DNA of 41,266 bases from a virus (IMGVR_UViG_2534681675_000019); one strand, 5' to 3'. Positions 5,436 to 38,078 are shown, counted from the stretch's first letter. A program made the numbers and translations. Notes: generated by a model from the sequence alone, not told the origin.

Positions 5436-5512
5436 TTACCGTTGAGGTAATAATTATGCGTATTTGGTTTGGTGTCAATAGATATGAGTTAAAAAAATTA
5501 CCCGTAAGGTAA
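5436..5512. promoter_or_regulatory. Leftward early promoter region with two TTACC-N5-GGTAA palindromic sites (OL-like)
   Basis: Sites at 5436-5450 (TTACCgttgaGGTAA) and 5498-5512 (TTACCcgtaaGGTAA), between the repressor terminator and the first leftward gene. Confidence 0.5.
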
Positions 5513-5525
5513 TTAAATAGACAAT

Positions 5526-5552
5526 AAAAAAGCCGCCAAATGGCGGCTTACT
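5526..5552 (-). terminator. Intrinsic terminator downstream of the repressor gene
   Basis: GC stem AGCCGCCA/TGGCGGCT at 5531-5548; on the minus strand it is followed by a TTTTTTATTG tract. Confidence 0.55.
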
Positions 5553-5569
5553 TACTGAAAAATATGATT

Positions 5570-6154
5570 TTATTGTTTGTTTTTTTCGTTCTGGTTGATG
5601 ACAAATTCAATGTAACTTTCGATCTTTGCTTTCTCGGTTTCAGGTAACAATGCGTAGCGCGAGCGGTCATAGTTGATAGTTGCAGGATCGTGCGGGTGAA
5701 TCAGTAGTTCATATCCGTGACGCCCGAATGCAGATGCAACATTCTCCAGGGTGGAAATGGAAACGCTGACCTCATTGTTTAACAGGCGGCTGATTGTCAC
5801 CTGGGCGACGCCGGATGCGCGGTGAAGTTTTCCCTGTGTTGAAAGGTCGCGGCTTTCGCTCATCCAGCGTTCCAGGTTGTGAGCCGCTAGCTGACCAATG
5901 TCGCTTGGGCCGACAGGCTGAAAACCTTCCTGAGAAAGCGAGCGATCGATATCAAGCCAGTTACGGGGTTTATTGGCGGCAGCTTCAATTTTTCGCGCAA
6001 CCTGGTCGCCGATAACCTTCTTGCCAAGAGCCCAGCGGTTTACCAGATTTGCCTGAGTTCCAAGTTTTTCTGCCATCCGCGTCTGAACACCATTGAATTC
6101 ACGGTCGATCAAGTCGTTGAGATTTTGCCTGCGGACGTCCTGGATACTTTTCAT
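5570..6154 (-). CDS. Prophage repressor, CI-like, tandem HTH, no peptidase S24 domain
   Basis: 194 aa; two XRE-type HTH segments (QTRMAEKLGTQANLVNRW and ASGVAQVTISRLLNNE); divergent from a Cro-like gene across an operator-rich spacer; no Ala-Gly/Ser-Lys autocleavage module visible. Confidence 0.7.
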   Translation of the reverse strand: MKSIQDVRRQNLNDLIDREFNGVQTRMAEKLGTQANLVNRWALGKKVIGDQVARKIEAAANKPRNWLDIDRSLSQEGFQPVGPSDIGQLAAHNLERWMSESRDLSTQGKLHRASGVAQVTISRLLNNEVSVSISTLENVASAFGRHGYELLIHPHDPATINYDRSRYALLPETEKAKIESYIEFVINQNEKNKQ

Positions 6155-6209
6155 TTTCTGGAAAATCGCCTCATATATGAATCAGTAGATGATTCAATTT
6201 AAAGCAATA

Positions 6210-6272
6210 TTACCCAACAGGTAAATGCACCCCATAGGTAACTATCCTTGATTTTTGTTACCTTATGGGTGA
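6210..6272. promoter_or_regulatory. Divergent immunity promoter/operator region (OR-like) with three TTACC-N5-GGTAA-type sites
   Basis: 6210-6224 TTACCcaacaGGTAA; 6227-6241 gcACCccataGGTAA (half-degenerate); 6258-6272 TTACCttatgGGTGA; between repressor start (6154) and Cro-like start (6309). Confidence 0.55.
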
Positions 6273-6308
6273 ATATTTATTATCTGAAATAAATATCAGG
6301 CAATAGCT

Positions 6309-6539
6309 ATGAGCGATAACGGACATTTCGATTTCAAAAAGCACTGGCTTGCACTTACTCCGGATGAGCGTGAAGCCTTCGCACAGGAAGCCGGAACGAC
6401 GAGTCACTATATCCAGACTCACTTAACAGGTAAGCGCAAAATGCCAGGTAAGGTATTGATGGATGGGCTTTTTAAAGCCTGTAAATCAAGACAATGGCTG
6501 CGCTCAAAAGCAGAACTGGCATACTTCTTCTACTCATGA
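6309..6539 (+). CDS. Cro-like small HTH regulator
   Basis: 76 aa; HTH-like segment FAQEAGTTSHYIQTHLTGKR; first rightward gene opposite the repressor. Confidence 0.5.
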   Translation: MSDNGHFDFKKHWLALTPDEREAFAQEAGTTSHYIQTHLTGKRKMPGKVLMDGLFKACKSRQWLRSKAELAYFFYS

Positions 6540-6560
6540 TATCCAGCCACAACCCTCTGT

Positions 6561-6586
6561 AGACCGCCATCCGGCGGTCTTTTCAT
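6561..6586 (+). terminator. Intrinsic terminator after the Cro-like gene (tR1-like position)
   Basis: Stem AGACCGCC/GGCGGTCT (6561-6580) followed by TTTTC. Confidence 0.6.
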
Positions 6587-6689
6587 ATCTATTCGTACCT
6601 CAAAGGTAATAAAAAACCAAATATGGTTGATCTTTTTTTTGTGTCAGCACAAAATAACCGTAATCCCAATACTAATAACAGGGCTTACC

Positions 6690-6890
6690 ATGGAAATCAT
6701 TACACGTATTGATGCCGCAAAGCGCGGACTTAAACGCTACTACACCGGAAAACCATGTAAGCACGGACATGACAGTGAACGCTGGGTTTACAACGGACAC
6801 TGTGTTGAGTGCACCATGGAATCAAACCGTCGCATCAGGGCAGAGATTAAGCAGATCATGATTAATTCCTCCCCACAACACTCAAGCTGA
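6690..6890 (+). CDS. Small Cys/His-rich protein (possible zinc-binding regulator, CII-like position)
   Basis: 66 aa from ATG 6690 (MEIITRIDAAKRGLKRYYTGKPCKHGH...GHCVEC); the track ORF starts 21 codons earlier in hydrophobic read-through. Confidence 0.4.
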   Translation: MEIITRIDAAKRGLKRYYTGKPCKHGHDSERWVYNGHCVECTMESNRRIRAEIKQIMINSSPQHSS

Positions 6891-6905
6891 TAGCGGAGAT
6901 TAATC

Positions 6906-7697
6906 ATGAGCAGACATGCAACAGATTGGGCCTGGGAGACAGATCCAGGTAGCTCATCATTAAAGCTCATACTGCTCTCGATGGCTGACAGAGCCGATGA
7001 ATATAACCTCTGCTACCCCAGCATAGAACGCCTCGTTAAAGACACTTGCCTGAATAAAAAAACCGTGCAGGCCGGACTTATATCGCTCATGAAAATGGGG
7101 CTTATTTCAGATACCGGAGAGAGAAAGGGAGCGACGAAAAGAGTGCGGGTTTTCTCTCTTAATATAACCAAAAACGGGAACATTAAAGGCAACCGAGAAG
7201 GGGGTAATGAACCCGAAAACGGTAATGTTACCGAAAACGGGAATATACCCAAAAACGGGATGTTGAATGATCCCAAAAACGGGATCCAGAACCAGTCATA
7301 TAACCAGTCATTTAACCAAGAGAGGGAGAGCAGGACAAAAACCGGGGATTCTGTGCCTCATGACCCCGGCGCAAACAACGCCGTGATGAATAACTTTGTT
7401 CCTCCTGGTGGGCCAGGGCAATTAGGCAAATTTGTCATGCATGAACAATGGCAGCCATCAGATGACTTTCTTCGGAAAAGCTCATTGCAGGGAATCTACC
7501 TTGACAGTCTGCCAACGGCACAGGAACTTGCAGAGTTCAGAATTTACTGGATGGCTGAGGGTAAGGCATACCATCAGGCACAGTGGGAGCAGAAGCTGGC
7601 AAGGCGGCTGCAGATTAGCAGACAGAAGCTATCAACATTACCTGATAACAACGTTCCGCACTGGAACAGCCCTGAAGCATGGGAGGATTTCTTGTGA
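6906..7697 (+). CDS. Replication initiator, lambda O-like
   Basis: 263 aa; N-terminal winged-helix-like block; iteron repeats lie inside the coding sequence and encode an NG-rich linker; immediately upstream of a P-like gene. Confidence 0.65.
   Translation: MSRHATDWAWETDPGSSSLKLILLSMADRADEYNLCYPSIERLVKDTCLNKKTVQAGLISLMKMGLISDTGERKGATKRVRVFSLNITKNGNIKGNREGGNEPENGNVTENGNIPKNGMLNDPKNGIQNQSYNQSFNQERESRTKTGDSVPHDPGANNAVMNNFVPPGGPGQLGKFVMHEQWQPSDDFLRKSSLQGIYLDSLPTAQELAEFRIYWMAEGKAYHQAQWEQKLARRLQISRQKLSTLPDNNVPHWNSPEAWEDFL
7168..7286. repeat. Origin iterons: five direct repeats CC(A/G)AAAACGG(G/T)A
   Basis: Copies begin near 7168, 7213, 7231, 7249 and 7273; three consecutive copies are 18 bp apart; followed by an ACCAGTCAT x2 repeat. 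Confidence 0.6.
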
Positions 7698-8479
7698 ACA
7701 ACGTTTTTACCGCGATACAAAACCGTGACGGAGAAGCCCTTTCTCGCATGTCAGGTTATGAGCATCAGTACACCAACAATGACAACGTGGTGAACATGTC
7801 AGCAGAGAGGCTTGTTGATGCCCTTTTCAAACAGCTGAAACAACTGTTTCCGGCGGCAGTGGTAACCAACCTGAAGAGGCCAGAGCAGGAAGTCGCTGCA
7901 AAACAGCAGTGGATTGCTGCGTTTGCTGAAAGTGGGATCCGAACCCGTGAACAGGTTTCTGCTGGTATGCGCCACGCCCGCGCCAGTGAATCTCCGTTCT
8001 GGCCGTCGCCAGGGCAATTCATCAAGTGGTGTAAAGACAGCAAGATGGTTCTTGGCGTCACCATTGACGATGTGATGGCGGAGTTTCATCGGTACAGCAA
8101 GGAAAAAAGTTTATATCCTGGTGGTCCCGAAAGATTCCCGTGGCGACATCCGGTTATGTACTGGGTCGTATGTGATACCCGCCGTGCAATGTATCAGCGC
8201 CAGCTTAGCGAGATTGAGGTTGAGAAACACGCGCGCAGGCTGCTCGATGATTGGGCGAAAAAGGTGGCTTCCGGACAGCAGATACCCGATCCGGTGATCA
8301 GCATACAGGCAAAGCCAGAGCCCATGAGTACACCTCCGGACACAGGGAGAGACGTTTACCATCCACCAGGGCGAAGTTTCGGGTGCATGCCTAACGCCGC
8401 CACCCTTGGGGGAATAACACCGGCGCAGTGGCTGATGGAGGAATACAGGCGGGGAAAGGCGGCAGGATTTATCAAGTAA
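7679..8479 (+). CDS. Replication protein, lambda P-like (helicase loader)
   Basis: Central block ...WIAAFAESGIRTREQVSAGMRHARA...PFWPSPGQFIKWCKD resembles lambda P (from memory). Likely true start is GTG 7694, after a GGAGGA Shine-Dalgarno. Confidence 0.65.
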   Translation: MGGFLVNNVFTAIQNRDGEALSRMSGYEHQYTNNDNVVNMSAERLVDALFKQLKQLFPAAVVTNLKRPEQEVAAKQQWIAAFAESGIRTREQVSAGMRHARASESPFWPSPGQFIKWCKDSKMVLGVTIDDVMAEFHRYSKEKSLYPGGPERFPWRHPVMYWVVCDTRRAMYQRQLSEIEVEKHARRLLDDWAKKVASGQQIPDPVISIQAKPEPMSTPPDTGRDVYHPPGRSFGCMPNAATLGGITPAQWLMEEYRRGKAAGFIK

Positions 8480-8516
8480 TACCAGCGCGATAGCGCATTT
8501 TTTTACGCCTATATGA

Positions 8517-8593
8517 TTACCTTGTAGGTAATAAAATGTTCTAATTACTATTGATTTCATGTCTTATGTGGTTTTTAATTACCTAAGGGGTAA
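8517..8593. promoter_or_regulatory. Two TTACC-N5-GGTAA sites upstream of the nin-like gene block
   Basis: 8517-8531 TTACCttgtaGGTAA and 8579-8593 TTACCtaaggGGTAA; the second overlaps the ribosome-binding region of the 8597 gene. Confidence 0.5.
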
Positions 8594-8596
8594 ATC

Positions 8597-18571: not shown

Positions 18572-18579
18572 GAGAGGAA

Positions 18580-19623: not shown

Positions 19624-20061
19624 ATGATCACCGACAAACTGTTGATGTTCTCCGAAGCACAGGCGGTAACTGATACCGCGGCTTCAACTGACGTAATCGA
19701 TCTCGGTCCAATTGACGGAAACCGTCGCGATATCGGTGTAGGTTACCCGCTTGAGTTTTGGGTGCTGGTTAACGAAGCCGCCACGGCAAGTGGTGAGGCA
19801 ACTGTAAACATCCAGTTGCAGACGAGTGAGAATAACAGCTCATGGTCCACTATTTATGATAGTGGCGCACTGGCAAAGGCTACCCTGACAGCAGGTAAAC
19901 GAGTTGTTTCTGCAAAGGTGCCTGCCGGTGTTCAGCGATATCTGCGTGTTAACTACTCCGTCGCAACTGGCCCACTAACGGCCGGCAAATTCACTGCGAG
20001 TATTAGTCTGGATGTTGATGCCAATACACCGTACCCGATCCGCTCAAAAGTAACTGGTTAA
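19624..20061 (+). CDS. Virion protein, possible capsid decoration
   Basis: 145 aa, GGAGAAAG Shine-Dalgarno, directly after the capsid gene. Confidence 0.4.
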   Translation: MITDKLLMFSEAQAVTDTAASTDVIDLGPIDGNRRDIGVGYPLEFWVLVNEAATASGEATVNIQLQTSENNSSWSTIYDSGALAKATLTAGKRVVSAKVPAGVQRYLRVNYSVATGPLTAGKFTASISLDVDANTPYPIRSKVTG

Positions 20062-20071
20062 GGTGATTTCG

Positions 20072-24291: not shown

Positions 24292-24836
24292 TGTGCGATC
24301 CGGTTATTGCTGGTGGCGCAATGCTCGCCATGAGTGGCATTCAGGCATACACCCAGTACCAACAGGGAAAGTATGCCTCGAAGGTTGCAGAAGCGAACGC
24401 AGATATAGCCACAGCTCAGGCAAATGATGCAATAAACAGGGGTAACGCTGAAGCTGAGCAACGGCGCAGAGAGACCCGACAGCGGCTTGGTACACAGGCA
24501 GCGACAATGGGGGCTACCGGCGCTGATTTATCTACAGGTAACGCGCTGGATATATTTGGCGACACTGCCCAGTTTGGCGCTCTTGATTCGCTGACGACGG
24601 TGAATAACGCGCAACGCGAGGCTTACGGTTATCAGGTTCAGGCTGCCAACTATAAAGCAGAAGCCAGTTCAGCCCGTAAACAGGGGAATGTGGGAGCAGC
24701 AACAACATTGCTCACTGCGCCTCTGAAGGCATACGGTGCGTACCAGATGTTTGGTGGGACGTGGAGTCCGTTTACTCAAAGCACCCCTGCGCCAATCGGG
24801 GCAGCAGCAGGAACCAGATTACCCGGAGGATTATAA
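24291..24836 (+). CDS. Internal virion protein (small, Ala/Gln-rich)
   Basis: 181 aa, translationally coupled. Confidence 0.4.
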   Translation: MCDPVIAGGAMLAMSGIQAYTQYQQGKYASKVAEANADIATAQANDAINRGNAEAEQRRRETRQRLGTQAATMGATGADLSTGNALDIFGDTAQFGALDSLTTVNNAQREAYGYQVQAANYKAEASSARKQGNVGAATTLLTAPLKAYGAYQMFGGTWSPFTQSTPAPIGAAAGTRLPGGL

Positions 24837-27349
24837 TGCCAGTCGTACCAACAGTATCCGGACGCCAGGTTGAGAGCCGTGGAGTTCAGTCAGCAGGCTT
24901 GCAGACGTTTTCTCAGCCAGGTATTGGTGATGCTTTTGTTCGGGCAGGGACAGAGGCAATTGATGTTTTGGGGCAGGCAAAACAGCGTGCCAATATCGCT
25001 CTGGCTCAGGAGGCATCTCTTAACCTCAGTCAGATAAGCAGTGATCTGCTGAATAACCCTGAAACAGGTTTGCTTAACCTGAAAGGGAAAAATGCTATTG
25101 GAAAAGGCCATGAGTATACGCAGCAGTTTGATGCTCAGGTCGAACAACTGGCTATGTCGCTGCCGGATGAACAGGCTCGTAATGCTTTCATGCAGCAGGC
25201 GCAGCAGCAGCGCATTCAGTTCACTACGCAGGCCGGGCGGCACGAGATAGGGCAAATTAATGCCTACGAAGAAGGTCAGTTTCAGGCGACGCTGCTGAAC
25301 AATGGTAAAAATGCCGCAGCATTGTATGGCGACAATGCCGCATACGTATTGGCTAATAAGCAAACTTTCCAGCAAATTGAGGAGTACGGTGCTGCACATG
25401 GCTGGAGCGACGAGCAAATACAGGCCAAGAAAATCGAGTTTAAAGAGAAGGTTGCTGATGCAGCATTGTCCCAGTGGTCGGCAAACAATGCGACCGCATT
25501 CATCCAAAGTAATGGCGAGTTAAGTGATACTGCTGCTGGAGCTCGCCGTGCTGTAACAGATAGTGGCTCTTCCGAGCGTGTCCGTGGCATACGCAACAAT
25601 AACCCCGGAAATCTCGAATACAGCAAAACTAATCCGTGGGTAGGCCAGACCGGTGATGATGGTAGATTTGCTAAATTCGAAACACCTGAACACGGGATTC
25701 GTGCATTAGGGCGGAACCTGATGTCGTATCAGCGGCAGGGTATTGATACCGTCAGCGAGATAATTAATCGCTGGGCACCGCCTACTGATAAAAATGACAC
25801 TATGTCGTATATCAAAGCAGTGTGCGAACAACTTGGCGTTTCTGCTGATGAGCCTCTCGATGCATCAAATCCTGATACCCTGAAGGCGCTTTGTGCAGCC
25901 ATTATCCATCATGAGAACGGTAGCCAGCCATACAGTGATCAGCAGTTAACTGCTGGTGTCAGTGCAGCACTTGGTTTATCAACAATTCCAACCAACACCA
26001 AACGCTATACCGGTAATGCAGCATTCGATGCGGCATCTCCTGAGGCTCAGGCAAGTTTTATGCGGCAGGCGGATCAACTGCGTCGGCAGCAGCAGGCTGA
26101 ATATAAAACGATGATTGACAGCCAGGTTCGCGATGCGACGGCTGCGTATATGCGTGGCGTTGAATTTCCTAACCCACCTGGTGAGGCTGATTTTATTGCA
26201 GCTTATGGAGTCAGAGAAGGAAACCTGCGATATACCGAGTTTAAGAATACGCAGATCGCCGGACAGTATATAGGCTCTTTCCGCAACATGCCGACAAGCA
26301 GCATTACAGCATATGTTGAGCAATTACGCCCGGATACTGGTGAGACAGGGGAGGGTTATGCGGCTCGCGCAGCTCTTTATGACAACGTTGTTTCGGCTGC
26401 AAATCAGGTGATAAAGCAGCGGCAGTCTGATCCTGTGCAGTTCTCTCTTGCCTCTGGACAGGCAAAGCCTATCGACATGAGCAATAAGGATAACTTTGGA
26501 CAGAGCGTTGCCTTGCGTGCCGCTCAGGTCAGTGACCTTGCTAAGTCATATGGCACTCCACTGACGTTCTTTTCCAAAGACGAGGCCAATCAGATCGGTG
26601 TTTTTTTTCGTGATGCTCCAGTTTCCCAACAGGCAGCATATCTCGATACCATCAGGCAGAGCACTGGTGGTGGGCAGGTGTATATGTCAGCACTACAGCA
26701 GATCAGTGCCAACGCTCCATCTGCTGCCGTTGCCGGGATACTGATGGACAAGCCTGGTGGTATTTTGGCAGAAAAAAACTGGTTTAATCCGGATGTTTCC
26801 GTGTCTCCTGAAACCGCTGCGCAGACAATTCTTACTGGCGCGGCGGCTCGTAAAGGTACTGATGATGCGAAAGGTATTCCGATGCCTAAAGATGCTGATC
26901 TTCGCCTTGAGTTTTCTGACATGGTGAAGGATGCATTTGCTGGTGATGCTCAGGGGGCATCAATGGCATACGAGATCGCAAAGGACTATTACGCTGGTGT
27001 GATGGCGAAAAAAGGCGTGATATCAGGCGAAATTGACACTGATATCTGGAAACAGGCTGTTAACGTAGCTACAGGTGGCGTGCATGACTATAACGGAATG
27101 GGGAATGTCCTTTTGCCGTGGGGAATGTCTGCAGAGCAATTCGATAAGCAGGTTAATCAGGCTTGGAATGAACAAGTTGTCGGCTCCGGGATAAAAACAC
27201 CGCCTGGTCAGTATGGTTTGCAAAGTTACGGCGATAGTCAGTACCTGGTGAAACTTGGTACTGGTTATCTGCTGAAAGATGATGGTTCTCCCGTTGTTCT
27301 TAATCTGACACAGAAACGTCAGAGATTCTCCGGAGATATTCCGCAATGA
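24836..27349 (+). CDS. Large internal virion/ejection protein
   Basis: 837 aa from ATG 24836 (overlaps the previous stop); contains a conserved-looking block GIRNNNPGNLEYS...FAKFETPEHGIRALGRNL...RWAPP of unknown function. Confidence 0.45.
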   Translation: MPVVPTVSGRQVESRGVQSAGLQTFSQPGIGDAFVRAGTEAIDVLGQAKQRANIALAQEASLNLSQISSDLLNNPETGLLNLKGKNAIGKGHEYTQQFDAQVEQLAMSLPDEQARNAFMQQAQQQRIQFTTQAGRHEIGQINAYEEGQFQATLLNNGKNAAALYGDNAAYVLANKQTFQQIEEYGAAHGWSDEQIQAKKIEFKEKVADAALSQWSANNATAFIQSNGELSDTAAGARRAVTDSGSSERVRGIRNNNPGNLEYSKTNPWVGQTGDDGRFAKFETPEHGIRALGRNLMSYQRQGIDTVSEIINRWAPPTDKNDTMSYIKAVCEQLGVSADEPLDASNPDTLKALCAAIIHHENGSQPYSDQQLTAGVSAALGLSTIPTNTKRYTGNAAFDAASPEAQASFMRQADQLRRQQQAEYKTMIDSQVRDATAAYMRGVEFPNPPGEADFIAAYGVREGNLRYTEFKNTQIAGQYIGSFRNMPTSSITAYVEQLRPDTGETGEGYAARAALYDNVVSAANQVIKQRQSDPVQFSLASGQAKPIDMSNKDNFGQSVALRAAQVSDLAKSYGTPLTFFSKDEANQIGVFFRDAPVSQQAAYLDTIRQSTGGGQVYMSALQQISANAPSAAVAGILMDKPGGILAEKNWFNPDVSVSPETAAQTILTGAAARKGTDDAKGIPMPKDADLRLEFSDMVKDAFAGDAQGASMAYEIAKDYYAGVMAKKGVISGEIDTDIWKQAVNVATGGVHDYNGMGNVLLPWGMSAEQFDKQVNQAWNEQVVGSGIKTPPGQYGLQSYGDSQYLVKLGTGYLLKDDGSPVVLNLTQKRQRFSGDIPQ

Positions 27350-29148
27350 GTTACTTTGGCCTTAATCCAGTAAACCAGAATCAGCAGCTTGACGAAGCAG
27401 CATCAAATCCAGCTGGCTTTAACAGCGATGTTGGTTTTTTCGACAATGCTGTAGGAGCGGCATTGTCTGGTTTGTACTCCGGGCTGGTGGCAAAGCCAGA
27501 TCAGTTGCTATGGGCAGGGATGGATAAAATCGTATCCCCGATTGCTCAGTTTGTTAACGAAAACACCTCGCTCAATGACACTTCAGTTTCATACATTGCT
27601 GAGCAGAGAAAACTAGCAGAGCAGCAGGTTAAGCGGCTGACGCCTGATGCCGCGACAACCGGAACCGCCGGGCAGGTCCTTTATGGGTTGTTCGATATGG
27701 GCGGGCAGGCTGTTGTTGGTACAACGCTCGGTGGTCCGGTCGGAGGTGCTGCGGCGGTAACTTCGCTACAGGGTTTTTCTGAGTTTGAACGGCTGACAGC
27801 ACAGGGTGTTGATTTCAGGACGGCGCAGGAAGCGGGATTAGTGCAGGGTATTACTGCTGGTGCCGGAACACTGATCCCTATGAGCCTCGGGTTACGTGCT
27901 GGTGGTGCGCTGGCGGAAGGTGTGGCGGCTCAGCTTGCGCGGACGGGTGAAAGTTCAGTGCGACGCGCCGCAGCAACAGCAGTACGTGCAACGCCAGATA
28001 TTGCCTATGCCGCAGGTACAAATATTGCGTTCGGTATGGCACAGCGTGGGCTTACTGCAAAAACGCTTCGTGATGGTGGCTATAGCGAAATGGCTAATCA
28101 GTATGATGTGTTGGATCGACAGGCAATTGCTATTGATGCTGTTCTTGGAGTGGCGTTTGGTGGTGTCGGCAGATTTATTAACTCTCGCGGCGAGTCTACA
28201 AGCGCACCAAATTTTTCACCAGTTGATGTCGATGCTGCACTGGCGGCGAATGCCGCTCATCATGCTGAAATTGATATTGCTCCCGGTGTGCCGATCAACG
28301 TGCTTTCGCGTAATTCGCACATTCAGGCTCTGCGAAAAGCCATGTCTGATGTTAGCCAGGGGAGACCTGTAGACGTTGCCAGCATTGTTGAGTCTGCATC
28401 TTTCAGTGAAATTCCTGGGCGCAAGAGTCTGCTTTCTCAGGCAGTTAATGAGGCTCTGTCATCTGTAGATGATGGAGTAACGGCGCGCGCTATAGAAAAT
28501 CGGTTGCTTGAAGAACAGGCCGCGCAGCTTTTGCCGCGTGGCGATAGACAGGTTTACCAGTCTGAAATCGCTAATAGCCAACGAATTATTGAAAATCTCA
28601 CTGAACAGCGCGCACAAATTCTTGCAGAAGAGCCAACCGGTAGCGGTAAGGCTTTATCTCGTGCTCGATCAGATAAACAGGCCAGACTTCGCGATATTGA
28701 CCAACGAATCCGGCAGGCACAAGAACGCCTGGAATTTTCTCGTAACGCGTTGGCACCGCATGAGCCTGGCGGTCAGTTTTTTGAAGCTCGAGCAGAACTG
28801 GCACGGCGACTGCAGGTAGAAAGTGAACTTAATGCTCAGGCTGTTTCATTCTATAAAACAGCAGAGGTCAGGACGCCAGACGAAGTAGCTCCTTTTGAGC
28901 CTGATAAAATATTGCAACAGGCAGAACAAAAAATGATGGCGGATCAGGCGGGAGATATTGATCTGCGCATAGCTGAAGACTCGCTGCTTGAATCACCTGA
29001 CATGATAATCACCGTGCTGGATGATGATGGTAATCCACAATCGCGCAGTGCGCGTGAAGTACTGGATGAAGCGAACAGGGAAAGTGAGCAGGCAATACAG
29101 GATTCCAGCCTGTTTGATGTTGCTGTGGCGTGTTTCTTGAGAGGTTAA
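27346..29148 (+). CDS. Large internal virion/ejection protein
   Basis: 600 aa, coupled; Gly/Ala-rich N-terminal half. Confidence 0.45.
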   Translation: MSYFGLNPVNQNQQLDEAASNPAGFNSDVGFFDNAVGAALSGLYSGLVAKPDQLLWAGMDKIVSPIAQFVNENTSLNDTSVSYIAEQRKLAEQQVKRLTPDAATTGTAGQVLYGLFDMGGQAVVGTTLGGPVGGAAAVTSLQGFSEFERLTAQGVDFRTAQEAGLVQGITAGAGTLIPMSLGLRAGGALAEGVAAQLARTGESSVRRAAATAVRATPDIAYAAGTNIAFGMAQRGLTAKTLRDGGYSEMANQYDVLDRQAIAIDAVLGVAFGGVGRFINSRGESTSAPNFSPVDVDAALAANAAHHAEIDIAPGVPINVLSRNSHIQALRKAMSDVSQGRPVDVASIVESASFSEIPGRKSLLSQAVNEALSSVDDGVTARAIENRLLEEQAAQLLPRGDRQVYQSEIANSQRIIENLTEQRAQILAEEPTGSGKALSRARSDKQARLRDIDQRIRQAQERLEFSRNALAPHEPGGQFFEARAELARRLQVESELNAQAVSFYKTAEVRTPDEVAPFEPDKILQQAEQKMMADQAGDIDLRIAEDSLLESPDMIITVLDDDGNPQSRSAREVLDEANRESEQAIQDSSLFDVAVACFLRG

Positions 29149-29153
29149 ATTAA

Positions 29154-31628
29154 ATGAGACAGGAATGTATACAAGCGGTCCAGCAGGCGGCGCAGCGCAC
29201 GTTAACGGCGCGAGAAATACAGAACATTGAAGACCGCATTTATCGAAATATGCGCTCCATTGCTCGTGATGACCCGATGTCGTGGCGACAACTTTCCGAA
29301 TCAGAACGGTTGTATCGTGCAGCACAATTGGCATCTGAAGAATTACAGCGAGAAGCGGCATTAAAGAAACGTCGTGTGGCCCTCACTATAGCCGCACGTC
29401 AGAGATTGGATAAATTTATCAATAGCTATCAAGGGGCTGATGGGAAACTTGGCGCTCTTAACCGTACTATTGCTTTTAATGCAGACGGTAAATCGAATTT
29501 CCTCTCTGTTGAATCCAGAACAAAAGCCACCCGTGATTATGCATTGAGTCAATTGCAGGAGGCATTCGAAGCAGTTGATCCTCGCTTTTTTGGTCTGTTT
29601 GAAGATGAAGCGGGCGTACGTGACCTGGTATATGAAATGCGGGGGCAAAATACTGGCAATGCTAAAGCAAGAAAAGGTGCTAAGGCGTGGAGAGAAGTTA
29701 CAGAGCTGCTGCGCCGCCGGTTTAATGATGCTGGTGGGGACATTGGCTATCTCGAAAACTGGGGGATCCCTCAACATCATTCTATGGAAAAGGTTGGGGC
29801 GGTATCAAAAGATAAATGGGTTAGCGATGTTATAGGTAAGCTGGATCGCAAATATTATACCCGAGCCGATGGACAACTGATGAACGATGCCGAGTTGTCT
29901 GCATTTCTTGGAGAGGCTTATAACACGATCGCTACTGGTGGGCTGAATAAGCTTACTGATACCGGAATGCGAATTTCCGGCGCACGTGCTAACCGTGGTA
30001 ATGCATCACGACAGATACATTTCAAAGATGCAGATTCCTATCTGCAATATCAGCAACTTTATGGCGATCGCTCTCTATGGGAAATCATGGTCGGTCACCT
30101 TGAAGGTATCAGTAAAGATATTGCACTGGTGGAAACATATGGCCCAAACCCCGATCATGTTTTCCGCTCTCTTCTTGATCAGGTGAAGGCAGAAACGGCA
30201 ACAGCTAACCCGAGTAAAACCGGTAAAGTCGAGCGGCTGGCGAACAACACAGAGAATCTGTACAACTTTATTTCCGGAAAGACACAGCCTGTAGCGAATC
30301 CGCACATCGCGCGATGGTCTGACAATATCCGCAACTGGCTGGTTGCCAGCAGACTCGGATCCGCGTTGCTGTCATCGTTCTCTGATCTTGGAACCATGTA
30401 TCTGTCTGCGAAGGTGACCAACCTTCCAATGAACCAGTTATTCCGCAACCAGCTTGAAGCTATGGACCCAACGAACCGTACAGAACTTGCGCGGGCGCGC
30501 CGCGCTGGTCTGGCGATGGAATCTCTACTTGGCAGCGTTAACCGCTGGGCGATGGATAATATGGGGCCGTCAGTGTCTCGTTGGGCGGCAAAGGCGGTAA
30601 TGCGTGCCAGTGGGCTTACAGCATGGTCAGATGCGCACAAGCGCGCCTATGGCGTAACCATGATGGGAAGCCTGGGAGAAGTAGTGTCACGGACACCAGA
30701 CCTTCGTAGCCTCGATGACTCTGATTTTCGTATCCTGAAAAGCAAAGGGATTACTGACACAGACTGGAGCGTATGGAAGCTGGCGCAACAGGAGGACTGG
30801 GGGAACGGTAATAATACGATGCTGACACCGGAAAGCATTATGCGTATCCCTGATTCAGCAGTTAAACATCTTGGTGAGCCTGAACGCGTGAAATTTGAGG
30901 CAATGCGTAAACTGCTCGGTGCCGTAACTGAAGAAGTTGATATGGCTGTTATTACACCGGGAGCACGTGAGCAACTGATAACCGGTTCTGGTATTCAGCG
31001 TGGAACATGGAAAGGTGAATTAACGAGAAGTGTTTTCCTGTTTAAATCGTTCCCTATCTCGGTGGTTATGCGTCACTGGTCACGCGCTATGGGTATGCCG
31101 TCTGCTGGTGGGCGTGCGGCATATATTGCGACGTTTATTGCCAGCACGACCATTCTTGGCGCTTTGTCTCAGCAACTTAACGACCTTGCGTCTGGTCGTA
31201 ATCATCGCGAGATGACAGGAGAAGATGCTGCTAAATTTTGGCTTGGTGCTCTACTGAAAGGTGGTGGTCTTGGCCTTTACGGTGACTTTTTATTGTCAGA
31301 TCACACTAGGTACGGAAGCGGCGCGCTGGCGTCGATGCTTGGCCCGGTAGCTGGTCTGGTTGATGACGTAGTGAAGATTGCTCAGGGCATACCGTTAAAT
31401 GCTGTGGAAGGGAAGAATGAGCAGACTGGTGGTGATCTGGTTAAGCTGGGGAAAGGTCTGATGCCAGGTGCGAATCTCTGGTACTTAAAGGCGGCTCTCG
31501 ATCACATGATCTTTAACCAGATGCAGGAGTATTTTTCACCAGGCTATTTGCGTAAAATGGAGCAACGTTCGAAGAAAGAGTTTAACCAGACATACTGGTG
31601 GCGACCTCAGGATGTCACTCCGCAATAA
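29154..31628 (+). CDS. Large internal virion/ejection protein
   Basis: 824 aa, GAGAGG Shine-Dalgarno; last large gene of the core block. Confidence 0.45.
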   Translation: MRQECIQAVQQAAQRTLTAREIQNIEDRIYRNMRSIARDDPMSWRQLSESERLYRAAQLASEELQREAALKKRRVALTIAARQRLDKFINSYQGADGKLGALNRTIAFNADGKSNFLSVESRTKATRDYALSQLQEAFEAVDPRFFGLFEDEAGVRDLVYEMRGQNTGNAKARKGAKAWREVTELLRRRFNDAGGDIGYLENWGIPQHHSMEKVGAVSKDKWVSDVIGKLDRKYYTRADGQLMNDAELSAFLGEAYNTIATGGLNKLTDTGMRISGARANRGNASRQIHFKDADSYLQYQQLYGDRSLWEIMVGHLEGISKDIALVETYGPNPDHVFRSLLDQVKAETATANPSKTGKVERLANNTENLYNFISGKTQPVANPHIARWSDNIRNWLVASRLGSALLSSFSDLGTMYLSAKVTNLPMNQLFRNQLEAMDPTNRTELARARRAGLAMESLLGSVNRWAMDNMGPSVSRWAAKAVMRASGLTAWSDAHKRAYGVTMMGSLGEVVSRTPDLRSLDDSDFRILKSKGITDTDWSVWKLAQQEDWGNGNNTMLTPESIMRIPDSAVKHLGEPERVKFEAMRKLLGAVTEEVDMAVITPGAREQLITGSGIQRGTWKGELTRSVFLFKSFPISVVMRHWSRAMGMPSAGGRAAYIATFIASTTILGALSQQLNDLASGRNHREMTGEDAAKFWLGALLKGGGLGLYGDFLLSDHTRYGSGALASMLGPVAGLVDDVVKIAQGIPLNAVEGKNEQTGGDLVKLGKGLMPGANLWYLKAALDHMIFNQMQEYFSPGYLRKMEQRSKKEFNQTYWWRPQDVTPQ

Positions 31629-31637
31629 GGAACAACA

Positions 31638-32051
31638 ATGAAGGAATTATTGCTGTTATCGGTATTTTTGATATCCGCTTGCTCGACATCCTATGATGTT
31701 TATGACGGTGTTGATAAGGCATATTGCGACAAGGTTAAAATGGATTTTTCTCTTGCCAAGACGGCGAAGGATAGTTGTATTGATCACTACGTCAAGACTT
31801 ATACCAAGTCAGCATCATCGGCATCTGATATTGCTGAAGGTGCTGTGTTTGAGTGTAACAAGGTGATATCCATCGCAGCGAGTTCTTCATACGATGCTGC
31901 TGTATGTGCAATGGCTGAAAGAAACGGCATGTCTGTGCAAAAAGTTAATAGCATGATAAACAGTAATGACGAAGCCAAAATAAGAACTGATATCAGCTCG
32001 GTGAAAAAAGATGCCATGAACAGAGTTGTAAAATATCAGTCATCTTTATAA
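31638..32051 (+). CDS. Lipoprotein (signal peptide with lipobox LISAC)
   Basis: 137 aa; MKELLLLSVFLISAC; AAGGAA Shine-Dalgarno; last gene of the late operon before a terminator. Confidence 0.6.
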   Translation: MKELLLLSVFLISACSTSYDVYDGVDKAYCDKVKMDFSLAKTAKDSCIDHYVKTYTKSASSASDIAEGAVFECNKVISIAASSSYDAAVCAMAERNGMSVQKVNSMINSNDEAKIRTDISSVKKDAMNRVVKYQSSL

Positions 32052-32054
32052 GTC

Positions 32055-32090
32055 GTGACATGTCACAGGCCGCTTTCGCGGCCTTTAAAT
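32055..32090 (+). terminator. GTGACATGTCAC palindrome (copy 3) plus intrinsic terminator
   Basis: Palindrome 32055-32066, then stem GGCCGC/GCGGCC with loop TTTC (32068-32083) followed by TTTAAATTT. Confidence 0.55.
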
Positions 32091-32348
32091 TTACCGGGTT
32101 TGTTTTCGTAATTGTTCGGCACAATAGTCGAGATGTGTTTGCAGATCCTGCATAGACATCTGTGAGCTGGTGACGTAGTTAATCAGTGCAGTCAGTTCGG
32201 CAAGTGGGCCATCGACATTAAATCCATCCTTATCGAGATCCCGGAGTAATTTCATCAAGTGCGATCCTTCCACCAGTGACCTGACGCCTCCCGGCGTGTG
32301 AATCCTTTCGGTAAATCCCTCTTCCAGTGGATAGTGATACTGCTGCAT
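32091..32348 (-). CDS. Small LexA-box-associated protein (antirepressor candidate)
   Basis: 85 aa from ATG 32348 (GGAG 8 nt upstream); a near-consensus LexA box lies 20 bp upstream. The 126-aa track ORF would contain the box and is rejected. Confidence 0.5.
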   Translation of the reverse strand: MQQYHYPLEEGFTERIHTPGGVRSLVEGSHLMKLLRDLDKDGFNVDGPLAELTALINYVTSSQMSMQDLQTHLDYCAEQLRKQTR

Positions 32349-32367
32349 CTTATCTTCTCCATGCAAT

Positions 32368-32387
32368 AACTGTATGTTTATACAGTA
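32368..32387. promoter_or_regulatory. LexA (SOS) box
   Basis: AACTGTATGTTTATACAGTA matches TACTGTATATATATACAGTA at 17 of 20 positions, with CTGT-N8-ACAG intact and an AT-rich spacer; overlaps a TATAAA -10-like hexamer on the minus strand. Confidence 0.65.
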
Positions 32388-32424
32388 GCAAATAATTTGT
32401 TTGCTATCCAGCACGTTTTGCGAA

Positions 32425-32439
32425 TCACCTGAAAGGTAA
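32425..32439. promoter_or_regulatory. TCACC-N5-GGTAA site in the divergent region between the small gene and the tailspike
   Basis: TCACCtgaaaGGTAAT; 37 bp from the LexA box. Confidence 0.45.
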
Positions 32440-32543
32440 TATCTGCTCACATTAACACTCTTTCCATCCATATATGGTTTTTCAGGTAATAGAATAACCA
32501 GATATGCGGCGCAACGGGTGCTGCGACTATCTGGAGATTTAAC

Positions 32544-34796
32544 ATGACGGTCTCAACCGAAGTTGACCACAACGAATACACAGGCAATGGCGTTACGACT
32601 TCATTCCCTTATACCTTTAGGGTTTTCAAGGAATCTGATCTGGTAGTGCAGGTGGTTGACCTTGACGAAAATATCGCTGTGCTGGCTCTTGATACTGATT
32701 ACACTGTCACTGGGGCTGGTGGATATAACGGCGGTAATGTAATTCTGTCGAAGGCGTTAGCTAACGGTTACCAGATTTCTATATCACGAGAGCTCCCGGT
32801 TACGCAGGAAACTGATTTGCGTAATCAGGGGAAGTTCTTTGCAGAAGTGCATGAGGATGCTTTTGATAAGCTAACGATGCTGATCCAGCAGGTTCGAAGT
32901 TGGTTTAGCTTGGCGCTGCGCAAGCCGTCATTCGTAGCAAATTATTATAACGCGCTGAACAACTATATTCGGAACCTGAAAGACCCGGTTAACCCGCAGG
33001 ATGCAGCCACAAAGAATTATGTGGACAGCACGGCTTTATCGAACATCAACCATACCATCCGAGTTCCTGACGCTTATATCGATCCGCTGCCACCACTCGC
33101 TCAGCTTGAAGGCAGCATTATCGGCATTCAAAACGGGAAGCCTGTTCCTTTCCCTGTGCCTTCAGGAACGGCGGCGGACGTATTCAACCAGTTGGCCAGC
33201 AGCGCTGACGGGAAAGGTGATGCGCTGATAACAGTGAAGCAGCCTTACCAGGGGGCAACTTCTCTTTCGCAGCATATAAAAAATGCACAGGCTATAAGTG
33301 TTGTTGATTTTGGAGCGACAATTGATGGATCTCTCCACCCTTTAAGTGAAGTTTTCTCAACACTCTCAGCGGCACAGATGGTATATCCATTTGTTACGTC
33401 TCTCACGCAATCGTTGGATTATGCGGCGCTGCAGGCCGCATGTAATACTGGTAAAAAGGTGCTAATCCCAAAAGGTCTTGGATATTATAATGCCACAATT
33501 ATATTTAATAATTCAGTCAGAATTGTTGGTGAAGGGACTGATGCAATAAACCGTTCTCAGTCTTTCATGTCAATTGTTGGGAATATATCAGCCTTCGCAT
33601 TAGCTCAGGGTAGCTCAACATCAACGAAAATGATCCAGATTTTCATTGATGGCCTTTATATCTTTTATAACCCTGGCTCTACCCCAACAAACTCATCAAC
33701 AGACGGCGGCAAGGTAGCTTTTAATTTCTACTCAACAGTCCCTAATTCTACTGGGCTGGAAATGTCAGAAATTAAAAATTGTACAGTTCATGGGGCGTGG
33801 TCGTGCTTTAATGACCAGACAGGAACCTATCTTACAAAGCTTACGAATGTGTGGGCCAGGAACTGTCATAATGGTTTTACCAAAGGAACTGGCACAACAA
33901 TCCTTCTGGAAAGATGTTATGCATCTGGTTGTATTTCTCCTTACCAGTTTGGTTCTGTCTTCGCGGTTACAATGATTAACTGCGCGATGGATGGATCAAA
34001 TATTTCATTAAGCGCCGGGACGCTTGGAGGGGCTGGAGTTCACATCCTTAACACGCACAGTTTCAATATTATTGGCTTTGATGCAGAGGGAAACACCATC
34101 TCTACGGATGGAGCTGGAGAAGCTGCGCTGTTCCATTTTGAGAATAGTAGTGGTGGCTTATCCGGGCTTACCGCACATCAGAACAGCATGCGAAGTGTTG
34201 CGCCAAGTGATGCTGGTGTAGTTTCCTACATCAGGGCGTCAGGTAGCAGCGATGTTAAAATTGAGTCATCAGAAGATGATTTATCTGACACCAACCCAGT
34301 TGCATATACTGGGTCTGGGTATCCCATTATGTTACATGCAATAGACACAGCTAAAATAAGTGTCTTTAATAGCCGGTTCAGAGCAACCACTACAGGAACT
34401 CCTGTTTTAAGTACGCTAAGTACTGGTGATGTATCATGGTATGACTGCCCTAAAAAAACAGGACTTATCGCCAATGGTTACTCGCAGACTACATCTCAGG
34501 AAGGGTTGCAAACATCATGCTTCTCTACCAGTAAAGGCTCTACTTCTGTGGCTGCAAATACCCCGACAACACTTTTTTCTCTGCCAAATTCTCAAGGCAC
34601 TTACATTATCAGCGTTTGGGGATCTGGTAGTGGGACAAACTATGCGTCAACGCAGTTAGCAATGTATGATGGAACTTTGTATCTTACGGCATTGAAAGCT
34701 GCAGCGTTCCTGACATTTACTGTAACCGGAAGAATAGTAACCCTGACGAGCCAGGGGGCTGGAACTTTTAGTTGGACTTACACGAAAATAGGTTAA
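32544..34796 (+). CDS. Tailspike/tail fiber with T7 gp17-like N-terminal adaptor domain
   Basis: 750 aa; N-terminal YTGNGVTTSFPYTF...TDYTV...RELPVTQETDL...AEVHEDAFDKL parallels the T7 gp17 N-terminus (from memory); the C-terminal two-thirds is visibly AT-rich and Ser/Thr/Gly/Asn-rich, consistent with a receptor-binding module. Confidence 0.7.
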   Translation: MTVSTEVDHNEYTGNGVTTSFPYTFRVFKESDLVVQVVDLDENIAVLALDTDYTVTGAGGYNGGNVILSKALANGYQISISRELPVTQETDLRNQGKFFAEVHEDAFDKLTMLIQQVRSWFSLALRKPSFVANYYNALNNYIRNLKDPVNPQDAATKNYVDSTALSNINHTIRVPDAYIDPLPPLAQLEGSIIGIQNGKPVPFPVPSGTAADVFNQLASSADGKGDALITVKQPYQGATSLSQHIKNAQAISVVDFGATIDGSLHPLSEVFSTLSAAQMVYPFVTSLTQSLDYAALQAACNTGKKVLIPKGLGYYNATIIFNNSVRIVGEGTDAINRSQSFMSIVGNISAFALAQGSSTSTKMIQIFIDGLYIFYNPGSTPTNSSTDGGKVAFNFYSTVPNSTGLEMSEIKNCTVHGAWSCFNDQTGTYLTKLTNVWARNCHNGFTKGTGTTILLERCYASGCISPYQFGSVFAVTMINCAMDGSNISLSAGTLGGAGVHILNTHSFNIIGFDAEGNTISTDGAGEAALFHFENSSGGLSGLTAHQNSMRSVAPSDAGVVSYIRASGSSDVKIESSEDDLSDTNPVAYTGSGYPIMLHAIDTAKISVFNSRFRATTTGTPVLSTLSTGDVSWYDCPKKTGLIANGYSQTTSQEGLQTSCFSTSKGSTSVAANTPTTLFSLPNSQGTYIISVWGSGSGTNYASTQLAMYDGTLYLTALKAAAFLTFTVTGRIVTLTSQGAGTFSWTYTKIG

Positions 34797-35104
34797 TGTT
34801 ATTTTAGGGGAGCGATGCTCCCCATCATCAATTAAAAAATAAACTGTCCATCATTTTTTAGTTTTTTACCAAACTCCCTTGAGCCTTCCAGAGTGAAATG
34901 GCTATTGTCAAAGTAAAGATAATCACCTTTCTTTGATAGAATGTCACAATTCATAGCCTTTCCGCACTGCTCGGCAAGCGTATCTATGTATTTATACGAA
35001 TGCTGGTTGCTACTAGACTGGCCCCCTGAATCTCCAGACAACCAGTATCACTTAAATAAGTGATAGTCTTAATACTAGTTTTTAGACTAGTCATTGGAGA
35101 ACAG

Positions 35105-35470
35105 ATGATTGATGTCTTAGGGCCGGAGAAACGCAGACGGCGTACCACACAGGAAAAGATCGCAATTGTTCAGCAGAGCTTTGAACCGGGGATGACGGTC
35201 TCCCTCGTTGCCCGGCAACATGGTGTAGCAGCCAGCCAGTTATTTCTCTGGCGTAAGCAATACCAGGAAGGAAGTCTTACTGCTGTCGCCGCCGGAGAAC
35301 AGGTTGTTCCTGCCTCTGAACTTGCTGCCGCCATGAAGCAGATTAAAGAACTCCAGCGCCTGCTCGGCAAGAAAACGATGGAAAATGAACTCCTCAAAGA
35401 AGCCGTTGAATATGGACGGGCAAAAAAGTGGATAGCGCACGCGCCCTTATTGCCCGGGGATGGGGAGTAA
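35105..35470 (+). CDS. insC: IS2 transposase OrfA (InsC)
   Basis: 121 aa, [24 protein letters not shown]...; HTH; ends just past the AAAAAAG frameshift site. Confidence 0.85.
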
Positions 35471-36333
35471 GCTTAGTCAGCCGTTGTCTCCGGGTGTCGC
35501 GTGCGCAGTTGCACGTCATTCTCAGACGAACCGATGACTGGATGGATGGCCGCCGCAGTCGTCACACTGATGATACGGATGTGCTTCTCCGTATACACCA
35601 TGTTATCGGAGAGCTGCCCACGTATGGTTATCGTCGGGTATGGGCGCTGCTTCGCAGACAGGCAGAACTTGATGGTATGCCTGCGATCAATGCCAAACGT
35701 GTTTACCGGATCATGCGCCAGAATGCGCTGTTGCTTGAGCGAAAACCTGCTGTACCGCCATCGAAACGGGCACATACAGGCAGAGTGGCCGTGAAAGAAA
35801 GCAATCAGCGATGGTGCTCTGACGGGTTCGAGTTCTGCTGTGATAACGGAGAGAGACTGCGTGTCACGTTCGCGCTGGACTGCTGTGATCGTGAGGCACT
35901 GCACTGGGCGGTCACTACCGGCGGCTTCAACAGTGAAACAGTACAGGACGTCATGCTGGGAGCGGTGGAACGCCGCTTCGGCAACGATCTTCCGTCGTCT
36001 CCAGTGGAGTGGCTGACGGATAATGGTTCATGCTACCGGGCTAATGAAACACGCCAGTTCGCCCGGATGTTGGGACTTGAACCGAAGAACACGGCGGTGC
36101 GGAGTCCGGAGAGTAACGGAATAGCAGAGAGCTTCGTGAAAACGATAAAGCGTGACTACATCAGTATCATGCCCAAACCAGACGGGTTAACGGCAGCAAA
36201 GAACCTTGCAGAGGCGTTCGAGCATTATAACGAATGGCATCCGCATAGTGCGCTGGGTTATCGCTCGCCACGGGAATATCTGCGGCAGCGGGCTTGTAAT
36301 GGGTTAAGTGATAACAGATGTCTGGAAATATAG
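35428..36333 (+). CDS. insD: IS2 transposase OrfB (InsD), DDE catalytic domain
   Basis: 301 aa, [30 protein letters not shown]...; overlaps orfA in the -1 frame at AAAAAAG (35422-35428). Confidence 0.85.
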
Positions 36334-38063
36334 GGGCAAATCCAGCTACCAAGATAGCCTTTTATCGTATTGTTAATTTCAACTCTACTATTGTCATAAT
36401 ACTTTTTAGAGTATTTATTTATCCCATCAATTGTGTTTACGCCAGATTTAAAAGCAGACTTAATTATTTCCATTGGCTGTGCCGTAAACTTCATCTTAGG
36501 CCCAAATACAATAACTTCTCCTTTAGTCCTCTCCTGTATTTTGCCTATAGAGTAAAGCATCCCGAACAGATCGCCAACGCCATAATCATCATGAAGGATT
36601 ATAATGTTAGCTTCAGCTATGGCTGGAGATGAGATCACGTCATTGAATATTTTTTTGCACTTTTCTACATAGGGCATGTCGTTTGGTGTATAACCAAAGT
36701 TTGAACATAAGTTTGTAGTTCTTATATAAGTTATATCACCCTTCATCCCATTTTCAGTAAGTGCATAAGTCAGATCTATGCCATGAGAATTACCGATTAT
36801 TACTATTTTTTTGTCACCTGTCTTCGGTACAGGGTGAGGCTTGTCTCCATCAACCCAATACCTGTTCATTTGTTCTTTTAGCTGTTCGGACGTCATTGTG
36901 GCAAACGAAAACCTTGATGGAATTCCAGATAGCAATAGTACAGCGAAGCACAAACCAACTACACCACCTACAGGTAGCACGATTGAAGTTAATTCATTCA
37001 AGGACCTGCCGTTTTTAAATTTTGAAAGTGCCTTTCTTGAAGGGTTTTCAATTAAATAAAATGATGCGGCACCAATAAGAATTGATAAGGCAACACCTGA
37101 TACTGTATAAACCATATCATCCATCTTATTCATTGACATATAGACAACTATGGGCCAGTGAACCAGATATACCGAGTATGAAATTTTCCCAACCCATTGA
37201 GATAATGCATTATCAAGTAACAGGTTATCTTTACATCCAAGATAAATGACAAAGAAAGTAGAAACGACTGGTATTAAGGCAAGATACCCAGGCCACTTCA
37301 TTAAGCTGTTAAGCAAGACTATCCCCGATACTGCAAAGGCTATGGCAATCCATCTAAATACAGCAGTGCGTTTTGAATTTTGTATAGTAGGAAGAAGGTA
37401 GGCAAGGCCGCCAGCCAGCATCTCCCAAGCTCTGCTTGACAGAAGATAAAATGCAGCCCCCTGATTATTATAAGAAAGATACACTGAGGCAGTAAATGAT
37501 ATAATTGCAAGGATGGCAACAACATACCTTATATGCTTAGCGCCCAATAGCTTTGCAATTGCCATCATTATGATTGGATATACCATGTAAAACTGCCACT
37601 CTACAGAAAGCGACCATGTATGAAGAAGCCATTTCTGCTTTGATGCAGTGTCAAAATAATCAATGCTATGGTAATACTCAACGTTTGAGAAAAATAAAAG
37701 GCTACTTCTTACGTGTTGAGCCAGGTATTCATATTCAGAAGGCAAAAGAATGAAGTAACCAACTATCAGAACAGCAACTGAAACTACAGTTAAAGCTGGT
37801 ATAATCCTTCTTGCCCTATCAAGATAAAATCCTAACAGTGAAAAGTTTCCATTAGATATCTTTGTGTAAATTATTCCAGTCATCAGATACCCTGATATAA
37901 CAAAGAATATATCTACGCCTGAAAACCCACCAGAAAACCCTTTGACTCCGAAGTGATAAAGGACAACTGCCATGACAGCAATAGCCCTGAGTCCGCCTAT
38001 ATCAGTTCTGTATTTTAAAGAAGACATAATCGCTATCGTTTTGAGTAAGATGCGTTAATGATA

Positions 38064-38078
38064 TCACCTTTAGGGTAA
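38064..38078. promoter_or_regulatory. TCACC-N5-GGTAA site in the divergent region between the acyltransferase and the lysis genes
   Basis: TCACCtttagGGTAAT. Confidence 0.45.

Follow-up and report, generated by a model that had tools for sequence, protein, structure and literature searches.

TTACC-N5-GGTAA palindromes as probable dispersed operators of the repressor Rep in a phiV10-like prophage

Palindromic sites across the prophage

The 41,266-nucleotide viral stretch analyzed here, IMGVR_UViG_2534681675_000019 (the window), belongs to the genus Uetakevirus (the ε15 group) and is a phiV10-like prophage. For most of the window, identity with PAS61, phiv142-3 and phiV10 is about 97%, and its first base is the start of the integrase start codon. 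In about 370 of 5,426 complete E. coli genomes there is a prophage that spans 80% or more of the window's first 25 kb; no prophage identical to the window was found among those complete genomes. The subject of this work is a 15-bp palindrome, TTACC-N5-GGTAA, which recurs at many regulatory regions of the prophage and probably serves as the operator of its own repressor, Rep. The genes and elements on which the analysis turns are listed below.

5570..6154, minus strand: Rep, prophage repressor, 194 aa, the proposed binder of the motif; flanked by the sites at 5436/5498 and 6210/6227/6258
6309..6539, plus strand: Cro-like early protein, 76 aa, divergent from rep; its function is assigned from position only
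32091..32348, minus strand: Ant, antirepressor, 85 aa, 89% identical to the Ant of phage SPC32H
32370..32385: LexA box CTGTATGTTTATACAG over the ant promoter, a perfect CTGT-N8-ACAG, invariant in five phages
36258-38027, minus strand: O-antigen acyltransferase gene

Scanning the window, we found seven copies of the exact motif TTACCNNNNNGGTAA, where dinucleotide-preserving shuffles gave 0.02. The relaxed pattern TYACC-N5-GGTRA occurred 10 times (0.14 expected), and TTACC-N5-GGTAA with at most one mismatch occurred 13 times (0.78 expected). For the location of the sites, we used a gene map hand-curated from the list of open reading frames (ORFs) and from the annotations of phiV10, ε15 and PAS61, in which non-coding DNA makes up 6.2% of the window. 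Of the 13 sites with one mismatch or none, 12 lie wholly within this fraction (binomial P = 3.9e-14). The thirteenth, at 38308 (TTACCTCTGCGGTAG), sits inside a lysis-cassette gene; we rejected it, since it fits the roughly one chance match expected. Among matches with two mismatches, 24 of 25 fall in coding sequence. These are background, except for the sole non-coding one, at 6227, which occupies a conserved operator slot.

This gives 13 operators in eight regulatory regions, mostly placed between a terminator and a transcription unit: early-left (2), rep/cro (3), replication (1), nin-like (2), terminase (2), portal (1), ant/tailspike (1) and lysis (1). In the list, PL and PR are the leftward and rightward early promoters, and terS is the small-terminase gene.

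5436..5450: promoter-proximal operator of PL, TTACCGTTGAGGTAA; exact match, conserved in five phages
5498..5512: distal operator of PL; exact match, 62 bp from 5436 and about 20 bp upstream of the PL -35
6210..6224: rep-proximal operator of the rep/cro spacer ('OR3' slot by analogy only); exact match, invariant in five phages
6227..6241: middle operator slot, GCACCCCATAGGTAA; two mismatches (GCACC), 17 bp from 6210
6258..6272: operator of PR, TTACCTTATGGGTGA; one mismatch, fills the PR spacer and runs into the -10
6595..6609: operator heading the replication unit, just past the cro terminator, GTACCTCAAAGGTAA; one mismatch (GTACC...GGTAA)
8517..8531: distal operator of the nin-like unit; exact match, slot invariant
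8579..8593: proximal operator of the nin-like unit; exact match, ends 3 bp before the ATG at 8597
12410..12424: operator upstream of terS; exact match
12428..12442: degenerate tandem partner of 12410, TTACCACGGTGGTTA; one mismatch (TTACC...GGTTA), 18 bp away
15575..15589: operator of the portal/structural operon, in a 707-bp spacer; exact match, homologous to ε15 2931-2947
32425..32439: operator of the ant/tailspike spacer, TCACCTGAAAGGTAA; one mismatch, homologous to ε15 19895-19911
38064..38078: operator of the acyltransferase/lysis spacer, TCACCTTTAGGGTAA; one mismatch

The original prediction had picked out about ten of these sites by eye, all described as promoter-proximal and intergenic. 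Every coordinate it gave is correct (5436, 5498, 6210, 6227, 6258, 8517, 8579, 15575, 32425 and 38064); the sites at 6595, 12410 and 12428, each conserved in relatives, had been overlooked. All the real sites are intergenic. Proximity to a promoter is borne out by consensus sequences at PL and PR only and by manual reading at nin, and elsewhere it is presumed. The right half, said to be usually extended to RGGTAAT, has this form at seven of 12 sites, and the best form of the 15-bp palindrome is (A)TTACC-N5-GGTAA(T). Read directly from the sequence, the half-site centres are 10 bp apart, which is one helical turn.

At the early-left region, the predicted PL (TTGACA-17-AATTAT) runs from 5478 to 5450 on the minus strand. 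The operator at 5436 abuts its -10, shares the last base of that -10 and spans about -7 to +8. The spacing of the PL pair is 62-63 bp in six phages, including ε15, SPC32H, Tyrion, BUCT711 and PAS61. The rep/cro spacer contains three slots at 17- and 31-bp intervals. The middle one is degenerate in the window and in Tyrion, while ε15, SPC32H and BUCT711 carry a perfect TTACC-N5-GGTAA in the same alignment columns. An invariant TTGATT -35 is located 3-4 bp upstream of the operator at 6258, and the PR candidate of the promoter tool (TTGTTA-17-TATTAT, 6255-6283) overlaps this operator as well. Taking the immunity-region copies for operators was sound, as these copies lie on both sides of rep and extend into PL and PR.

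Further to the right, the operator at 6595 lies downstream of a terminator (6561-6580), and its ACC-N5-GGTAAT core is kept in all five phages. The operator at 8517 is found directly past a conserved hairpin, GCGC...GCGCATTTTTTT, which is the terminator of the P-like replication gene. Together with 8579 it forms a pair whose 62-bp spacing is identical in six enterobacterial phages. Reading the nin promoter manually, we obtained TTGATT(8550)-17-TTTAAT(8573), with the operator at 8579 starting at the last T of the -10; the promoter tool misses this promoter because its -10 has no A at position 2. The operator at 12410 is placed between a terminator (12373-12390) and the terS start at 12445 and is homologous to the ε15 'repressor' site 12-27. 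Its degenerate partner at 12428 is also present in Tyrion (85-99), PAS61 and ε15. Since terminators precede the operators at 6595, 8517 and 12410, most units look insulated and individually controlled.

Extending the scan to related phages, we find the motif over-represented at homologous positions in every relative tested. There were 12 sites in ε15 (0.08 expected), 15 in Enterobacter phage Tyrion (0.51 expected), 13 in Klebsiella phage BUCT711 (0.49 expected) and 11 in a Serratia ficaria prophage whose Rep is 53% identical (0.31 expected). SPC32H shows the excess at the same positions as the window, and PAS61 at positions matching those of the window. In eight locus alignments (portal spacer, ant/tailspike, rep/cro, PL, lysis, nin, terS and the cro-terminator region), the operator forms an invariant block, while the spacer DNA around it has diverged. 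Phages of Escherichia, Salmonella, Klebsiella, Enterobacter and Serratia all carry the motif unchanged.

In relatives, a one-mismatch site, TTACCTTAAAGGTAT, is also conserved ahead of the integrase gene, at about 43-57 bp from its start (PAS61 238-252; SPC32H 26960; Tyrion 28568; BUCT711 12620). Because the window opens at the integrase start codon and the site of the relatives lies upstream of it, a fourteenth operator is probably situated just left of window position 1.

Rep as the probable binder of the motif

Between the PL and PR operator clusters lies the gene of Rep, the protein proposed to bind them. Rep aligns over its full length with the Rep of SPC32H (PDB 5D50; E 4e-42). Its residues 89-190 align to the C-terminal construct 5D4Z, which covers tetramerisation and Ant binding (E 4e-20), the oligomeric state of the window's protein being predicted only. 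It is 100% identical to the 'putative transcriptional repressor' of phiV10. Performing a Pfam search on Rep, we obtained HTH_3 at residues 106-147 and a weak YdaS-like match at 21-61, below the curated cut-off (21 versus 30 bits); the search returned helix-turn-helix (HTH) families only and no Peptidase_S24. By homology, the window's repressor is of the SPC32H Rep type with two HTHs, as opposed to the self-cleaving CI/LexA kind. The literature describes SPC32H Rep as a tetramer on palindromic DNA, in which the DNA-binding domains pair from different dimers, and the tetramer is taken apart by tetrameric Ant. A paper on the close relative ZX5 reports that its repressor and antirepressor affect the life cycle, and it maps no operators.

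The Rep proteins of five phages are about 43-78% identical to that of the window, yet the N-terminal ANLVNRW..G.K.IG...AR.IE is invariant. Its core NL(V/I)(N/S)RW is essentially invariant in 15 homologues, including those of Citrobacter, Raoultella and Serratia, down to 42% identity. The putative recognition helix is invariant in all 15, and the Serratia relative carries the same operator motif. This unchanged N-terminal motif fits the unchanged operator sequence.

The constancy of the motif across five host genera could be explained by a conserved host protein, that is, by a host transcription factor or nucleoid protein recruited at the phage promoters. However, the constant motif is matched by a constant recognition motif in the phage's own Rep, the densest cluster of sites flanks rep, and the ε15 record annotates IHF sites separately. 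To our knowledge, no enterobacterial factor has this inverted-repeat consensus; CpxR uses direct GTAAA repeats. We give this explanation almost no credence.

We conclude, with a probability of roughly 85%, that TTACC-N5-GGTAA is the operator of Rep, placed in front of nearly every transcription unit of the prophage. With one helical turn between the half-sites, both could be read from one face of the DNA by a pair of N-terminal HTH domains. In the lysogen, Rep would occupy the sites and itself keep every unit off, with no single early promoter and antitermination cascade in between. At PL, PR and nin, where the operator overlaps the core promoter, repression would act by occlusion. As pairs at 62 bp bracket both PL and the nin promoter, the two sites of a pair might be held by a single Rep tetramer or by two tetramers that cooperate. 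Upon DNA damage, LexA would leave its box over the ant promoter, Ant would be made, and by dismantling the Rep tetramer it would release all units together.

A different reader of the same sites has to be weighed at the rep/cro spacer, as the Cro-like gene adjoins the three-site cluster. The sites could be bound mainly by the Cro-like protein, acting as a lytic repressor or a rightward activator, with Rep confined to those adjoining rep. Conservation is higher in the Cro-like protein than in Rep (59-84% versus about 43-78% identity across five phages), the former having an invariant AGTTSHYIQ.HLT that is probably an HTH motif, and in λ, Cro and CI share operators. On the other side, a Pfam search gave no match for the Cro-like protein, the ε15 record credits the dispersed sites to the repressor, and a Rep tetramer, with its two DNA-binding pairs, would go well with the tandem pairs and the 62-bp pairs around promoters. 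We therefore regard exclusive use by the Cro-like protein as improbable. The Cro-like protein may nonetheless bind the same operators, and it is likely that both proteins use them; such sharing is compatible with Rep as the binder, the rival being Cro-only use.

Late units and a second conserved box

The sites of the late units need a separate description. In the portal spacer, a minus-strand TTGACA (15611 to 15606) is exactly 17 bp from a TACCTT inside the operator at 15575 in all five phages; the promoter tool's alternative is TAGACA-18-AATTAT (15618 to 15589). Downstream of the leftward TTGACA-17-TACCTT element lies a tRNA-Arg gene (anticodon UCU, reading the rare AGA; 15176-15252, minus strand), with a terminator-like hairpin beside it (15132-15097, minus strand). 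This tRNA gene is common to PAS61, SPC32H and BUCT711, but is not in ε15 or Tyrion.

In the ant/tailspike spacer, the ant gene is under the LexA box and divergent from the tailspike gene. The 126-aa call of the ORF finder (32091-32471) is over-extended; the true Ant start is the ATG at 32348, and the operator at 32425 is hence intergenic. It lies 14 bp upstream of the -35 of the manually read ant promoter, TGGATA-17-TACTGT. In the acyltransferase/lysis spacer (38028-38174), the operator at 38064 is inside the spacer of a leftward candidate promoter, TTAACG-18-TATCAT, which faces the acyltransferase gene. An identical site is present in SPC32H at 24782, and Tyrion and ε15 keep the slot as well. 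The region 34797-36333, between the tailspike gene and the acyltransferase gene, contains ORFs at 35060-35470 (plus strand), 35428-36333 (plus strand) and 34832-35041 (minus strand) that are not shared with the closest phage records; in PAS61 the tailspike gene is followed directly by the acetylase gene.

Several points weigh against Rep as the repressor at all these sites. We infer, rather than observe, both the binding of Rep at every site and the mode of repression at the three late units. Conservation does not decide between Rep and Cro as the binder, since that of the Cro-like protein is just as high. The portal, tailspike and lysis operators overlap no rightward σ70-like promoter and lie 30-60 bp upstream of strongly conserved promoter-like blocks; simple occlusion of late promoters is thus unsupported. 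Moreover, the O-antigen acyltransferase gene is expected to be on in lysogens, yet its candidate promoter bears the operator at 38064. Either the leftward-promoter reading at this site or the simple repression model is incomplete. If the late units are silenced by Rep, as we infer, this could come about through cooperation with a weak second site, blocked upstream promoter contacts or control mainly of the divergent leftward promoters. A TGGTT-N5-GGTAA located 62 bp past the portal operator and 50 bp past the tailspike operator is a possible weak second operator, and it misfits the lysis unit.

The late units share a further element. A second box, yCAWATRTGGTT (CCATATRTGGTT), is located to the right of the operator at five loci, always on the plus strand, and its core CCATATATGG is itself palindromic.

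6617-6628, plus strand: second box of the replication unit, after the cro terminator
8562-8573, plus strand: second box of nin
15630-15641, plus strand: second box of portal
32468-32479, plus strand: second box of tailspike
38110-38121, plus strand: second box of lysis
5459-5469: weaker copy of the second box

The box is thus paired with an operator at five rightward units (replication, nin, portal, tailspike and lysis), PR and terS being excepted. The operator-to-box distance is free of indels across four to five phages per locus, yet it differs between loci. Six of the 15 plus-strand matches of the short form ATNTGGTT, an 8-mer too short for genome-wide statistics, are non-coding. A fit of the portal, tailspike and lysis promoters together with the second box to a single σ70 register failed, and readings of the late promoters as extended -10, σ54, σ32 or IHF sequences were examined by eye and rejected.

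It is conceivable, although we would not favor it, that simple occlusion does not silence the late units, that the box is the site of a second phage regulator, and that the middle and late units need both the loss of Rep and that factor. Candidate binders of the box are the Cro-like protein and, from the early-left operon, the PerC-like protein. That operon encodes a PerC-family putative activator (2559-2858, minus strand) and an AlpA-family regulator (2968-3216, minus strand), both assigned by Pfam, and these two proteins are candidates for the control of the middle and late units.

A further reading takes the palindrome itself not for a repressor site but for part of a promoter or activator element common to the middle and late units, by which they are turned on. 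Sites head nearly every rightward unit, those of the late units lie upstream of promoter-like blocks, which is the usual position of an activator, and a PerC-like activator gene is at hand in the early-left operon. But the identical motif overlaps the PL and PR cores and forms a cluster of three between rep and cro, an arrangement typical of operators. It is also present at leftward units, and if the units share a promoter or activator element, the second box is the likelier one. We consider an activating role of the palindrome very improbable. The original prediction had left the choice between one repressor silencing every unit and a shared activator or host-factor site. The single repressor fits the evidence and the ε15 annotation, and nothing singles out an activator or a host factor.

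Existing annotation and comparison with known phages

The GenBank record of ε15 (AY150271.2) carries seven protein_bind features labelled 'repressor / lysogeny', and our motif matches coincide with them within 1 bp.

12-27: ε15 'repressor' site before terS
2931-2947: ε15 'repressor' site before gp3/portal
19895-19911: ε15 'repressor' site in the gp19/tailspike spacer
32479-32494, 32554-32570 and 32616-32632: ε15 'repressor' sites left of the repressor gene
35906-35922: ε15 'repressor' site before ruvC

Beyond these, our scan of ε15 placed three sites in the interval from the repressor gene to gp39, one ahead of the lysis genes and, in addition to the annotated one, a further site ahead of ruvC. 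The retrieved stretch of the phiV10 record (30017-37053) annotates none of these sites, and a literature search for the motif or for genus-level operator work found nothing relevant; a paper on LF82 'Gally' was dropped, as it concerns a P22-like phage. Because the type phage ε15 already carries the same annotation, the finding is not new. Going by the aligned genomes, the dispersed operator layout is a conserved and annotated property of the genus, and for this phage group the arrangement is not unusual, contrary to what the original prediction held of the copies at the late, tailspike and lysis promoters. The points specific to the window are minor: two PL sites and not three, a degenerate middle OR slot (OR being the rightward operator region), and operators left unannotated in the phiV10 stretch. 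The ε15 genome paper is Kropinski et al. 2007 (Virology 369:234), and the SPC32H Rep-Ant switch was reportedly described by Kim & Ryu 2013 and Kim et al. 2016.

Reading the palindrome as the Rep operator would explain the silence of a common E. coli/Salmonella prophage family by one repressor and one SOS-controlled antirepressor. It should help to annotate such prophages and to engineer phiV10-type reporter phages. The remaining interest lies in the late-unit mechanism, the second box and the single operator specificity of the clade. Phages from Escherichia to Serratia seem to keep one operator and immunity specificity at 42-54% overall Rep identity. The roughly 13 scattered operators may have frozen this specificity, unlike the many immunity types of lambdoid phages.

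Among known systems, ε15 is of the same genus as the window and shows ATTACC-N5-GGTAAT at the homologous terS, portal, tailspike, PL and nin/ruvC positions. It differs in having three PL sites against two and, in the window, the middle OR slot is degenerate; the Rep of the window is only 42% identical to the ε15 gp38 repressor. SPC32H shares with the window a Rep that is homologous over its full length, an Ant that is 89% identical, the LexA box over the ant promoter and the same operator positions. The two Rep proteins have nevertheless diverged (42% identity), mostly outside the N-terminal DNA-binding part.

λ resembles the window in having three operator slots between divergent repressor and cro-like genes and operators that overlap PL and PR. 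In λ, operators occur only at OL and OR (the leftward and rightward operator regions), and the late genes are under N and Q antitermination; the window, in contrast, carries eight further sites at six other regulatory regions. λ CI is inactivated by RecA-stimulated self-cleavage and not by an antirepressor. The half-site had been likened to those of lambdoid operators, but this likeness is superficial, as the λ cores TCACC and GGTGA are 3 bp apart and not 5 bp as here.

The layout of the window resembles that of phage P1, whose C1 repressor has many dispersed operators, and that of mycobacteriophages L5 and L1, in which one immunity repressor, gp71, has many scattered sites and directly controls many units. 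The P1 C1 and L5/L1 gp71 repressors belong to families unrelated to Rep. Their operators are asymmetric, and those of L5 are mostly inside transcribed regions and oriented to block elongation. The sites of the window are not stoperators of this asymmetric, transcribed-region kind, being symmetric palindromes of which 12 of 13 scan matches are intergenic. The 13 operators of the window are symmetric and intergenic only, and are often paired at 17-18 or 62 bp. PMC1934351 contrasts lambdoid phages with phages of many dispersed repressor sites.

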